The notes below the pieces were generated by a model, which saw only the letters and a list, made by a program, of their open reading frames with translations, did not search any database and was not told the origin of the DNA. Shown piece after piece: positions 36,581 to 42,978 of a stretch of 64,000 nt of DNA. Origin of the DNA: Escherichia phage vB_Eco_F31; sequence record OP870147.1. One strand, written 5' to 3'. How positions within the stretch are numbered: the first letter of the stretch is position 1; every line of letters starts with the position of its first letter. Both the position numbers and the translations under genes were made by a program.

Positions 36581-37537
36581 TTATTTGAAAGGTTTTACCA
36601 TATGAAAGTTTTGTTTGAAACGCTTGACGTAATCGTCGTGTCCTAAGCTTTGGTACATACTTACTACTTTGCTATAATTTTCCCAAGCGAACTCACGGAA
36701 CCATCCTGATGTGATTGATGTACAGACCTTTTCAAGGGCCATCATAAAACTATCACGTGGATGGATTTTAAAGTCGTTAGGAATCTGTGAACGTTCAAGA
36801 GCTAATACACAAGCTTCTTCATATACACCGGCTAATTTAACCATTTCTGGTAACGATTCGAACTTCTCGCGTGAGGTCATGACTTCAGAACCGTCTTTCA
36901 TATAAAACTTATAAGCAGGCTGGTCAGTTAGTGCAATGGCTTCATGGATAGTATCATGGTCATACGTATAGATGTCATCTTTAAAGAACGCACTTTTAGA
37001 AGTGTCAAGAACTGGGTGAGCATAATTCAAGGTTTCTTTCTGGCGTTTCAGCATAATTTCAGTAAGTTCATCGTTCAGTGTAACACCTTTACCACGAAGA
37101 TACTGAATATGGTTCATAGTCTTTAAAAAGAATGGATTATTTTTCTTGAAACGATGAGACATCTTAATTGCAAGACATATCTCAGGAGTTGCCCAGTAAA
37201 ACCCGTTCAAACGGTCTTTAGTCAAATTTTTCTTGGAGTATTTTAAAAGGTCATAAGAAGACGTGAAATCTTCAGGAGTGAGTTCACCGACTAGTTCGCG
37301 AACGTTAGTGATAGCCGGAACGATGTATGCTTCAAAATGAGTTTCGCGTCCATTATGGAAGCATTTGAAAACTTGGACATCAGGGTTATCTTGGTGAACA
37401 TATACACCCATCATTTGATTTTTGAATGCATTCCAAGAACCTTGGTCCGCAATAAAGTCCCAGTCACTATTTTTAATAGCGCTAGAATCAATAAGACCGT
37501 GATAGTGAAGTGCACGAGAACCAATAACTAACATCAT
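36581..37537 (-). CDS. hypothetical protein
   Basis: 318-aa ORF, no motif recognised. Confidence 0.6.
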   Translation of the reverse strand: MMLVIGSRALHYHGLIDSSAIKNSDWDFIADQGSWNAFKNQMMGVYVHQDNPDVQVFKCFHNGRETHFEAYIVPAITNVRELVGELTPEDFTSSYDLLKYSKKNLTKDRLNGFYWATPEICLAIKMSHRFKKNNPFFLKTMNHIQYLRGKGVTLNDELTEIMLKRQKETLNYAHPVLDTSKSAFFKDDIYTYDHDTIHEAIALTDQPAYKFYMKDGSEVMTSREKFESLPEMVKLAGVYEEACVLALERSQIPNDFKIHPRDSFMMALEKVCTSITSGWFREFAWENYSKVVSMYQSLGHDDYVKRFKQNFHMVKPFK

Positions 37538-37565: not shown

Positions 37566-37817
37566 TTAAATTTCACGACATGCGATATTATATTCATCCC
37601 AGAGGTCATCATGTGAAGCCTCTACCAATGGAACGATTGTACCGTTTATGTCTTCATTATAAGGGCAAATTGTACAGTGCGCATCTTCGAATCGGATGCC
37701 TTTGTGTTCAGATTTTTTATAACGCATATCGAATATCTTTGCAAACTTTTCACGAGTAATGGTTTTACCAACCACTTTGGTTCCGATACTTTCGTAATAA
37801 ATCATTGTGGACTCCAT
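37566..37817 (-). CDS. hypothetical protein
   Basis: 83-aa ORF. Confidence 0.5.
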   Translation of the reverse strand: MESTMIYYESIGTKVVGKTITREKFAKIFDMRYKKSEHKGIRFEDAHCTICPYNEDINGTIVPLVEASHDDLWDEYNIACREI

Positions 37818-37833
37818 TTGTTTTGATAGGACT

Positions 37834-37862
37834 ACTATAACATAGCCCTATCTTGTTGTAAA
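37834..37862 (-). promoter_or_regulatory. early promoter / stem-loop cassette
   Basis: TTTACA-N17-TATAGT; GATAGGACT/AGCCCTATC brackets the -10. Confidence 0.6.
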
Positions 37863-37867
37863 CTGTT

Positions 37868-38065
37868 TTAGCAAGAATAACTAGATGATACCCAGCCTTG
37901 AACAGTGATATTATTGTGGGATAATGAGATCGCGTCCTGGAGATTCAGACCTGCGTTATCTTCAATCCATAATGTAACTTCTTCGCGTTCTTCTGTTGCA
38001 ATTTGGAACAGGTTTTCCAGAGCAGCTACTGCCGTACGTACAGCACAATCTAATTCACGAGACAT
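37868..38065 (-). CDS. hypothetical protein, GWVSSS-C family
   Basis: C-terminus QGWVSSSYSC shared with two upstream paralogs. Confidence 0.55.
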   Translation of the reverse strand: MSRELDCAVRTAVAALENLFQIATEEREEVTLWIEDNAGLNLQDAISLSHNNITVQGWVSSSYSC

Positions 38066-38074
38066 ATTGTTTCC

Positions 38075-38347
38075 TTAGCAAGTGTGAGAAGATGCGACCC
38101 AACCACCGGTTTCGAGGCTCAGGTTGTAGTCGTATTGGTAAACGTCAGCCCATTCAGCATAGCCGTTTTTTGTACAACGTTCAAGATCGGCTTTAAGATG
38201 TCCGGGTGAATGATAGGTTCCACCCATACCATAAGCTGGGTACAAGTTGAATGTTGTGTTTTGTTTATCAGCAATTTCTTTGGCAGCCTCAATAGCTGCA
38301 TAGATTTTTGCTACAGCTTCAGCCAGTTCGGTTTGTTCTTTAGACAT
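38075..38347 (-). CDS. hypothetical protein, GWVSSS-C family
   Basis: C-terminus GGWVASSHTC. Confidence 0.55.
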   Translation of the reverse strand: MSKEQTELAEAVAKIYAAIEAAKEIADKQNTTFNLYPAYGMGGTYHSPGHLKADLERCTKNGYAEWADVYQYDYNLSLETGGWVASSHTC

Positions 38348-38356
38348 AATGATTCC

Positions 38357-38662
38357 TTAGCACAACGCAGAAGACGAAACCCAAGCACCTTCAGTAATAA
38401 CGTATCCATTACCTTCACGCTTAACATCGCCGCCATTATTTTCAATTTCATCTTTCATCCACTGGGATACGATTTCACCCTTAGGATAATAAGTACGACC
38501 GCTACCATAATCACCTACAGAAAATGATACGGCATATTGGTCTGCGATCTTTGTTGCTTCTTCTTCGATACGTTCAGCTTGATTCAGAAGTTTATAAATT
38601 GCATCTGAAGCGGATTTGGCATCATTAAACTCTGGTACTTTAATTTCAATAATCTTACTCAT
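38357..38662 (-). CDS. hypothetical protein, GWVSSS-C family
   Basis: C-terminus GAWVSSSALC. Confidence 0.55.
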   Translation of the reverse strand: MSKIIEIKVPEFNDAKSASDAIYKLLNQAERIEEEATKIADQYAVSFSVGDYGSGRTYYPKGEIVSQWMKDEIENNGGDVKREGNGYVITEGAWVSSSALC

Positions 38663-39018
38663 TTTCTACATTCCTTAATAAAGTTTTCGATTGTTTCATT
38701 TTCACGTTTAGCTAGGAGTTCATTATAACTAATCATTTGAGAAGCGTAAACCTTTTTATTTTTCTTGTTATGGTTTATAAAATCGTAGTAAAAATAGACT
38801 ACAGTACAAAAGGATGCGATAGATGCAAAGGCTTGGGTATACCGTAAGTCCTGCCATTGGTCTGTGAATCCACCAGTGTTACCTATAAATCCTAACACAA
38901 CTCCGTCAATAAGAAATCCAACTAATCCAAAGGCAAATCCCATGCCAATACTCATAATAAAAATTAGAATGTTCTCACCAAGAGAAGGCCATACGGTTAA
39001 GAGTTGAGGCTTTTGCAT
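38659..39018 (-). CDS. hypothetical membrane protein, C-terminal ENFIKECR module
   Basis: Hydrophobic helices; C-terminus IENFIKECRK. Confidence 0.5.
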   Translation of the reverse strand: MQKPQLLTVWPSLGENILIFIMSIGMGFAFGLVGFLIDGVVLGFIGNTGGFTDQWQDLRYTQAFASIASFCTVVYFYYDFINHNKKNKKVYASQMISYNELLAKRENETIENFIKECRK

Positions 39019-39422
39019 CTTATTTCCTTAACGAATTCCATAGCTTCTTCATATTCATACTTTTTAACAGCTTCATCATACTGAGCTTGGGCTTTTGCGC
39101 ACTGAACTTTCCACTCACGAACTCGAGCTCTGTGATGACGGCCTTGGTGCCAATATCCTGCCCAATTAATAGGCATTAATAAAAACGGTACAATAAGTGG
39201 TGCGACGAACATTAATGAAAACGCTGCATCAGACGATATAACTTTATTGGAATCTAAAACAGCTCCTATAATCATAAAGATTAAAAATGCTAAAGCTAAA
39301 ATAGGACCAAATAGTACTTCGTTTGGGATTAATTTACGTTTGTATTCGTATGCCCAGGGCTTAATTGGCATGTACAGGGTTGGCTTTGACATATTCTCTA
39401 CATTCCATAATAAATTGCTCAA
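38997..39422 (-). CDS. hypothetical membrane protein
   Basis: Hydrophobic helices; C-terminus EFVKEIRCK variant; start uncertain. Confidence 0.5.
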   Translation of the reverse strand: MSNLLWNVENMSKPTLYMPIKPWAYEYKRKLIPNEVLFGPILALAFLIFMIIGAVLDSNKVISSDAAFSLMFVAPLIVPFLLMPINWAGYWHQGRHHRARVREWKVQCAKAQAQYDEAVKKYEYEEAMEFVKEIRCKSLNS

Positions 39423-42823: not shown

Positions 42824-42900
<77 letters not shown>

Positions 42901-42903
42901 GAT

Positions 42904-42978
42904 TGGTGACCCTGGCTGGTTTCGATCCAGCTACCTATCAGTTATGAGCTGACAGCTCTCCCATTGAGCTACAGGGCC
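42904..42978 (-). tRNA. tRNA with CAU anticodon (Met, or Ile2 if lysidine-modified)
   Basis: 75 nt with CCA; acceptor GGCCCTG/CAGGGTC, anticodon loop CTCATAA, T-arm GCTGG/CCAGC; 3 nt from tRNA-Arg. Confidence 0.85.

Follow-up and report, generated by a model that had tools for sequence, protein, structure and literature searches.

Why do three adjacent genes of a phage keep one and the same C-terminus, closed by a cysteine, while the rest of their products has diverged, and what might this C-terminus do? The question is raised by a locus of Escherichia phage vB_Eco_F31 (sequence record OP870147.1), from which a stretch of 64,000 nucleotides, hereafter the window, was analysed. Positions 37,868 to 38,662 of the window hold three open reading frames (ORFs), all on the minus strand. 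ORF3 (38357..38662) encodes 101 amino acids (aa) with an isoelectric point (pI) of 4.6; it is a homologue of RB69ORF139c and its sole cysteine is its last residue. ORF2 (38075..38347) encodes a 90-aa paralogue of ORF3 of the YGMGGTY subtype. ORF1 (37868..38065), a homologue of RB69ORF136c, encodes 65 aa and is without the YG-x-GG-TY loop, with the tail kept. All three proteins are acidic (pI 4.2-5.0). Together with their stop codons, the tails EGAWVSSSALC of ORF3, TGGWVASSHTC of ORF2 and VQGWVSSSYSC of ORF1 occupy 38357..38389, 38075..38107 and 37868..37900, respectively, on the minus strand. The lengths, the coordinates and the terminal cysteines given for these ORFs in the original prediction were thereby confirmed.

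The shared tail is not a product of chance. The six frames of the window hold 978 stop-to-stop segments that are 30 aa or longer. Cysteine is the last residue of 28 of them, and the pattern W-x-[SA]-S-S-x-x-C is present in only three, namely ORF1, ORF2 and ORF3. Since the motif is unique to three segments that are adjacent and co-oriented, chance is excluded. The codons of the tail differ from one ORF to the next, valine being encoded by GTT, GTC or GTA and serine by TCG, TCA, TCT or AGT. As synonymous codons vary and serine is drawn from both the TCN and the AGT sets, selection acts on the protein and not on the DNA. Every tail stops at TAA. The junctions from ORF3 to ORF2 (TAA GGAATCATT ATG, 38345..38359, minus strand) and from ORF2 to ORF1 (TAA GGAAACAAT ATG, 38063..38077, minus strand) are each preceded by TGC, and both read TAAGGAA-N5-ATG, as had been noticed earlier, with the stop codon running into an AAGGAA Shine-Dalgarno ribosome-binding site.

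The relationship among the three proteins was examined by pairwise, profile and tail-less comparisons. Their N-terminal regions, which start with MSRELDCAV in ORF1, MSKEQTELAE in ORF2 and MSKIIEIKVP in ORF3, had been described as diverged, and this description stands for ORF1, whose direct match to ORF2 or ORF3 is confined to the tail. It does not stand for ORF2 and ORF3, which align over 73 residues with 30% identity (E=2e-6) and both belong to phrog_899 (E=5e-19 for ORF2 and 1.3e-22 for ORF3). ORF1 matches a different family, phrog_4882 (1e-36). When the ORF1 family was aligned with the main family by hhalign, only the last 17 residues matched, with a probability of 66%, and the alignment of the two families with their tails removed was not significant. 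A further comparison of the bodies was made after the last 12 residues had been removed from all tail-bearing ORFs. Here tail-less ORF1-type proteins were linked to an ORF2-type protein of a Yersinia phage (E=7.6e-5) through the N-terminal helix and the first strand (MSRELDCAVRTAKAALENLFQ..ENVDIY vs MSELDEAVKAIRAAINKAIEI..ATFDIY), and 158 of the 210 unique tail-bearing ORFs fell into one single-linkage cluster. The three ORFs are tandem paralogues that belong to a large, phage-restricted family of small acidic proteins. ORF1 itself is probably a shortened paralogue that has lost the YG-x-GG-TY loop, as judged from the one intermediate link. Its orthologues keep GW[VQ]SSSxxC, and both Cys7 (MSRELDC) and Cys65 are invariant among them; this pair would permit an intramolecular disulfide or a two-cysteine metal site specific to the subfamily.

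The extent of the family was determined in two steps. Word-indexed searches gave 57 relatives, and an exhaustive hidden Markov model (HMM) search then covered 1.84 billion representatives, from which 203 representative clusters were recovered at E<=1e-3. Nearly all of these proteins are 75-120 aa long, with a median of 90, and the end of the profile coincides with the end of the protein. Two long matches to the profile, P0115 and P0134, are repeat proteins and were rejected as false positives. Conservation of the motif outside the array, on which the original prediction had staked its case, is pronounced. The last residue is cysteine in 176 of 192 family sequences; eight others carry one extra residue and eight are truncated or frameshifted. 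The tail follows the consensus G-x-W-Φ-[S/A/P]-S-S-x-x-C, directly followed by the stop codon. From position -9 to 0, the counts among the 176 are G 128, x, W 175, V/I/L/M 130, S 117/A 47/P 9, S 175, S 173, x, x and C 176. The spacing from the tryptophan to the cysteine is seven in 175 of these sequences, and in 85 the terminal cysteine is the only one in the protein. Upstream of the tail, the body features are an N-terminal helix ending in ..AE-x-IAD, a strand G-x-x-F-x-F, a (D/A)YG-x-G-x-TYYP-x-G loop and a variable acidic linker. The mean net charge of the family proteins is -8.4.

A few members depart from this pattern. In one subfamily the tail is shorter (...DGSIWQ[SP]SSC). Extra copies of the motif lie inside the acidic linker of P0055, of a protein of phage tuntematon (L079 2353-2631) and of another encoded at L008 3136-3480 (DRWESSSEGWESSSEGWVSSSSQC; DWQSSSCYGE...VWHSSSC), which indicates that the W-x-S-S-(x)-C unit can occur more than once in a protein and that its place is not always the chain terminus. 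T4 Tk.1 (62 aa; L279 10346-10549) matches the family profile weakly (E=0.0012) through FEISSEYGDAETYY and has no Cys tail; it is either a remote tail-less relative or noise.

By tblastn, relatives of ORF3 were found in 391 phage records, including phages of Escherichia, Aeromonas, Enterobacter, Klebsiella, Serratia, Yersinia, Citrobacter and others. Genomes were further scanned with a hand-made degenerate DNA pattern for YGMGGTY. In 185,579 bacterial and archaeal species, with one genome each, this pattern gave 103 chance matches, and neither a family member nor DUF7275, the domain discussed below, was among them; in viral contigs, 43 of 73 matches were family members. On this evidence, the family appears to be confined to phages. 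Scans of ORF1, ORF2 and ORF3 against Pfam, NCBIfam and PADLOC returned sub-threshold noise only, no Pfam domain was seen in any family member, sequence and profile searches of the PDB with the small family gave no match and no related fold, and literature searches on the ORF names, the DUFs, the PHROGs and the motif found nothing relevant.

What the small proteins might act with is indicated by their neighbours. A gene about 330 bp downstream of ORF1 (36581..37537, minus strand) encodes a 318-aa protein, a putative nucleotidyltransferase, that matches phrog_2141 (1e-149), DUF7275 (2e-79) and DUF7277 (1.5e-27). The Pfam, NCBIfam and PADLOC scans, which also covered the neighbours of the three ORFs, assigned the partner to no families but these two DUFs. 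The association of this partner gene with the tail family was examined in both directions. In the forward direction, 43 viral loci were found through the YGMGGTY motif, 33 of them with enough flank to judge, and a DUF7275 gene was present in 33 of 33. These 43 loci carry one family copy in 18 cases, two in 16, three in eight and six in one. In the reverse direction, loci were found through an independent DUF7275 motif, GWFRE[FY]AWE, and 54 had at least 1.5 kb upstream. A family member detected by HMM lay nearby on the same strand in 44 of the 54 (81%), and either an HMM match or a W-x-x-S-x(0-3)-C tail was found in 50 (93%). The family genes in this test typically lie 1-900 bp upstream of the DUF7275 gene, often abutting or overlapping it, in up to five or six copies; in many loci the spacing between the small gene and the DUF7275 gene is -12 to +14 bp.

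To assess the specificity of this linkage, all genes lying within 4 kb of DUF7275 were clustered for 63 clades of the latter, defined at 60% identity. No neighbour other than the tail family is widely shared. The tail family is present in 37 of the 63 clades and the next, a DnaB-like helicase, in seven. The pairing extends over Straboviridae, Phapecoctavirus, Otagovirus, Menderavirus and 370-kb jumbo contigs, among which other gene order is not conserved. Phapecoctavirus tuntematon has three copies of the small gene, Otagovirus PHB09 four and Acinetobacter phage Acj9 two to three, and on the 371-kb jumbo-phage contig that encodes a distant family member, P0052, two tandem family genes, ending in ...GGWVASSQTC and ...GRWMGSSDFC, are followed by a DUF7275 gene. 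Homologues of DUF7275 are found in 734 phage records, in all of which they are hypothetical. The DUF7277-DUF7275 gene and one to six tail-family genes, usually just upstream and on the same strand, form a conserved two-component module.

DUF7275 genes also recur near genes of nicotinamide adenine dinucleotide (NAD) salvage, namely those for nicotinamide phosphoribosyltransferase and phosphoribosyl pyrophosphate synthetase, and near RNA-repair or tRNA genes (Rnl1 with polynucleotide kinase, Rnl2 with a metallophosphatase, and tRNA arrays). Such loci are those of Acj9 (L081), K460 (L086), a jumbo contig (L003), DSS3_PM1 (L083) and Gordonia phage Smoothie (L085). These neighbours may point to a role related to nucleotides or tRNA, or they could reflect nothing but the clustering of accessory genes.

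To gain insights into the partner, diverse members were aligned. In the N-terminal domain the only invariant columns are G6, S7, D25 and D27, arranged as h-h-I-G-S-x-A-L ... D-h-D-h-h, and E69, which falls on a later hydrophobic strand, is conserved to 90% or more. The C-terminal domain is helical and rich in His, Asp, Glu, Lys and Arg. Residues K125, H128, K139, T140, R165, H194, D195, H198, E240, E241, E248, R249, K270, R281 and E286 are invariant in it, and C272 is at least 90% conserved. Nucleotidyltransferases of the polymerase-β type are reportedly recognized by hG[GS], followed after 9-18 residues by D-h-[DE]-h and by a third carboxylate on a later strand (Holm and Sander 1995; Aravind and Koonin 1999; Kuchta et al. 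2009). The N-terminal domain of the partner displays this signature, with G-S, 10-18 residues, D-h-D and a glutamate on a later strand. We infer from these motifs that the DUF7277 domain is a nucleotidyltransferase of the polymerase-β type. One member of the partner cluster is named 'Nucleotidyltransferase' in UniRef, a third-party name, and the partner shows a weak match to the DUF6036 nucleotidyltransferase family (E=0.068). T4 NrdC.11, which is annotated as a nucleotidyltransferase, was considered as a relative of the partner and found to be unrelated.

The fold of the small proteins was approached by AlphaFold2 (AF2) modelling. The model of ORF3 has a predicted local distance difference test score (pLDDT) of 91.5 and describes a compact α+β domain that includes the tail. 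In this model, A-W-V-S forms the last beta strand (residues 93-96) and S-S-A-L a capping turn (residues 97-100). When compared with ThiS/MoaD/ubiquitin-like proteins by the β-grasp fold and a C-terminal Gly-Gly, the small proteins did not conform, and no fold similarity to acidic DNA-mimic anti-restriction proteins of the Ocr and ArdA type was seen in them. These results bear on the idea that the tail is a signal. Recognition or modification of the tail, as originally proposed, gains indirect support from the near-obligate adjacency of the enzyme gene, but the notion of a floppy tag attached to unrelated bodies does not agree with the predicted fold or with the paralogy of the three proteins.

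The setting of the array was reconstructed from related records. The window phage is an RB69-like T4-type phage of the genus Mosigvirus, and the 1.7 kb around the array are 99.4% identical to Escherichia phage APCEc01, with close matches in more than 130 records. According to the annotation of relatives, the region is flanked by genes on the lysozyme side (e, nudE, e.2) and by e.3, e.4 and e.5, all on a single strand. The three ORFs are the counterparts of RB69ORF136c to 139c and are labelled 'hypothetical' in every record. In T4, e.2 abuts e.3, and the array locus is therefore an insertion relative to T4; a scan of T4 nucleotides 1-78,000 found neither a member of the tail family nor DUF7275. 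In the window, the e.3 homologue (38659..39018, minus strand) encodes a predicted membrane protein of 119 aa, and its stop codon overlaps the ATG of ORF3 (ATGA). The e.4 homologue (38997-39422, minus strand), just upstream of e.3, looks like a small membrane protein as well; it is labelled 'sulfurtransferase' in Shigella phage JK36 (L001 7598-7972) and has no match in NCBIfam. Because the stop of e.3 overlaps the start of ORF3, the genes from ORF3 to ORF1 continue the e.4-e.3 gene string. The string e.3-ORF3-ORF2-ORF1 is tightly coupled and lies in a region of T4-type early and middle genes, and gene order and promoter-like motifs suggest that the array itself is expressed early or at middle times. 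Genes for the internal proteins ipI and ipII and for an Ip10-like protein lie within a few kb of the array, in the same hyperplastic region. Some 4 kb upstream of the array, the window has no more than two tRNA genes (Arg-TCT and Met-CAT, 42824-42978, minus strand), against ten at the corresponding position in the close relative JK36, which indicates that the tRNA cluster is variable among these phages.

On the other side of the array, an ORF of 83 aa (37566..37817, minus strand; phrog_3723) intervenes between ORF1 and the partner gene. It represents a separate family without the Cys tail and occurs only in close relatives, and for these reasons it probably does not belong to the conserved module. 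A promoter-like site, TTTACA-17-TATAGT (37834..37862, minus strand), lies directly past the ORF1 stop and ahead of both the 83-aa ORF and the DUF7275 gene; it is a consensus match only. The site overlaps an inverted repeat, GATAGGGCTA...TAGTCCTATC, that is annotated as a terminator in one related record. With a promoter-like site overlapping an annotated terminator repeat, the array may be transcribed separately from the DUF7275 gene in the window phage.

How, then, might the tail and the enzyme be related? The linkage of the two genes is exclusive and tight, which suggests that the small proteins work together with the enzyme-like partner. Because it is the sole feature kept by all subfamilies while the bodies diverge, the Trp-Ser-Ser-Cys tail may be the contact or acceptor site for the enzyme. 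We tentatively favor the interpretation that the tail engages the DUF7277-DUF7275 enzyme, as a modification acceptor or as a docking element, while holding it at somewhat less than an even chance. Within this interpretation, covalent modification of a tail serine or cysteine, for instance by O-nucleotidylylation, would be the most likely course, as two serine hydroxyls and a terminal thiol beside a putative nucleotidyltransferase make it the most economical guess. Nearly as likely, the tail would be a docking strand and the small proteins regulatory or targeting subunits. That the acidic bodies and the copy number both vary, in an early and middle gene region, suggests diversified effectors or decoys that could be directed against host components.

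A bolder version of the same idea would make DUF7277-DUF7275 a new protein-modifying enzyme that acts on the W-x-S-S-x-x-Cys of the co-encoded small proteins, and this we regard as a long shot. For example, nucleotidylylation of a tail serine could be followed by elimination and attack by the terminal cysteine, which would leave a lanthionine-like thioether ring on a folded protein; a stable nucleotide linked to serine or cysteine would be another outcome. Either would amount to a phage-specific system of post-translational modification, from which diversified early effectors would result. The S-S-x-x-C spacing, the invariance of H128, H194, D195 and H198 together with a C272 that is at least 90% conserved, and the synteny are compatible with such chemistry.

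Several observations weigh against engagement of the tail by the enzyme. The tail lies inside the fold as modelled, and a purely structural role would also explain its conservation. Copies of ORF3 or ORF2 in the reference phage RB69 (RB69ORF139c, P0002, 71 aa) and in mar005P1 (P0049, 75 aa), as well as P0006, are frameshifted or truncated and lack the Cys tail, and those in RB69 and mar005P1 imply that single paralogues are dispensable in culture. The small genes are downstream of the DUF7275 gene in Menderavirus Marzo, and no tail proteins were found near the distant DUF7275-only genes of Gordonia, Streptomyces, Vibrio K460 and DSS3_PM1 phages. In the window, moreover, the array does not adjoin the enzyme gene, as the 83-aa ORF and the promoter-like site lie in between. 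As for the enzyme, its assignment rests on a short motif, profile searches of the whole partner and of its N-terminal domain against PDB sequences and Pfam returned nothing significant, and a single-sequence AF2 model of the partner has a pLDDT of 39 and is unusable.

Some of these points are shared by the strongest of the alternatives, in which the small proteins act early and on their own, as inhibitors or decoys of host proteins, for instance in anti-defence or as nucleic-acid mimics. The tail would then be structural, a last strand with a C-terminal cap, its cysteine would serve oligomerisation, metal binding or the plugging of a target site, and DUF7275 would belong to the same host-takeover pathway without touching the small proteins. 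The strong acidity of the family fits this explanation, as do the tail packed within the predicted fold and the possibility that array and enzyme gene are transcribed separately in the window phage. The small size, the early or middle gene region, the varying copy number and the occasional pseudogenisation are likewise typical of accessory genes in an arms race. We consider this explanation unlikely on balance, yet well worth keeping in view.

A further alternative is a toxin-antitoxin-like arrangement, in which the enzyme is a host-directed and potentially self-harming nucleotidyltransferase and the small proteins are inhibitors or timers whose tail enters or blocks its active site. The gene order, a small acidic gene upstream of a larger enzyme gene that it often overlaps, would suit such a system, and so would the close spacing seen in many loci. 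However, two to six diverged inhibitor paralogues for one enzyme would be unusual, and no similarity to known toxin-antitoxin or defence families was found in Pfam, NCBIfam or PADLOC. Such pairs abound in bacterial and archaeal genomes, yet the motif scan of these did not recover the module, and in the window the 83-aa ORF and the promoter-like site stand between the genes. We therefore regard this arrangement as improbable. A virion role, in which the tail would direct the proteins to the virion or capsid or mark them for proteolytic processing, and packaging would follow as for internal proteins, deserves almost no weight, in spite of the ipI, ipII and Ip10-like genes nearby. The internal proteins of this phage start with MKTY[KQ]EFI and ORF1, ORF2 and ORF3 do not; the three proteins are acidic and encoded in an early/middle-region gene string; phage groups that are unrelated and differ in their capsids have the family together with the same partner; and the tail is predicted to be folded rather than a free peptide. 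With these results the analogy to capsid targeting drawn in the original prediction finds no support. The start of ORF2, MSKEQTELAE-A, loosely resembles MKTYQEFIAE-A. The family does not conserve this resemblance, which coincides with the start of the family helix and is probably due to chance.

Hundreds of large virulent phages of Proteobacteria carry the module in their early and middle accessory regions, and every copy is annotated as 'hypothetical'. The carriers include T4-type phages of Escherichia, Klebsiella, Enterobacter, Aeromonas and Acinetobacter as well as Phapecoctavirus, Otagovirus, Menderavirus and jumbo phages. Its absence from the e.2/e.3 junction and the first 78 kb of T4 may explain why the module has never been studied. 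An invariant C-terminus with a free cysteine, tied to a specific enzyme-like partner, makes a sharply defined hypothesis that is cheap to test. If the enzyme modifies the tail or is steered by it, this would constitute a new mechanism of protein tagging or effector diversification in the takeover of the host by phages, and two DUFs together with at least two PHROGs would gain a function. If not, the family would still be a large class of acidic early proteins with a novel structure, and it would be a candidate for anti-defence functions.

Comparison with known systems places the module apart from each of them. The small proteins and their partner are direct members of phrog_899, phrog_4882 and phrog_2141/Pfam DUF7277 and DUF7275, which are uncharacterised catalogue families, and the terminal-Cys tail and the pairing are recorded in no source that we searched. 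The tail and its pairing with the enzyme match no described system, although the absence of a match does not by itself demonstrate a new mechanism. The internal proteins IPI, IPII and IPIII of T4 are likewise small, come from the same hyperplastic region and bear a short terminal motif on diverged sequences. T4 internal proteins are mostly basic. Unlike them, the small proteins have their motif at the opposite end and ORF1, ORF2 and ORF3 are without the capsid-targeting sequence MKTY[KQ]EFI..E, and the family extends beyond T4-type capsids. Ser-Ser-x-x-Cys has the spacing of a lanthionine ring, and a terminal cysteine is the hallmark of aminovinylcysteine (AviCys) peptides. The small proteins share a C-terminal Ser-Ser-x-x-Cys with cysteine as the last residue with the precursors of lanthipeptides and of AviCys-containing ribosomally synthesized and post-translationally modified peptides. 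In contrast to such leader-core peptides, their tail is part of a 65-175-aa domain that is confidently predicted to be folded, and no LanB, LanM, LanKC, LanD or radical S-adenosylmethionine gene was found near the array among the window neighbours, in related loci or by Pfam.

Toxin-antitoxin pairs of types II and IV include nucleotidyltransferase toxins such as MenT, AbiEii and MNT-HEPN. With MenAT and AbiE the module shares gene order and tight spacing, a small upstream gene being followed by a larger one for a putative nucleotidyltransferase; neither partner matches MenAT, AbiE or MNT-HEPN in Pfam, NCBIfam or PADLOC, and the small paralogues here are multiple. Finally, in GlnD-PII, in CitX/MdcG with the acyl carrier proteins of citrate lyase or malonate decarboxylase, and in MntA-HepT, a nucleotide or a nucleotide-derived group is placed on a tyrosine or serine of the partner. 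The module differs from these in that no sequence or fold relationship was detected, the acceptor would be C-terminal, the small proteins come in arrays of two to six paralogues and the system appears confined to phages. What it has in common with them is a putative G-S...D-x-D enzyme encoded beside acidic proteins of about 100 aa with invariant hydroxyl residues.

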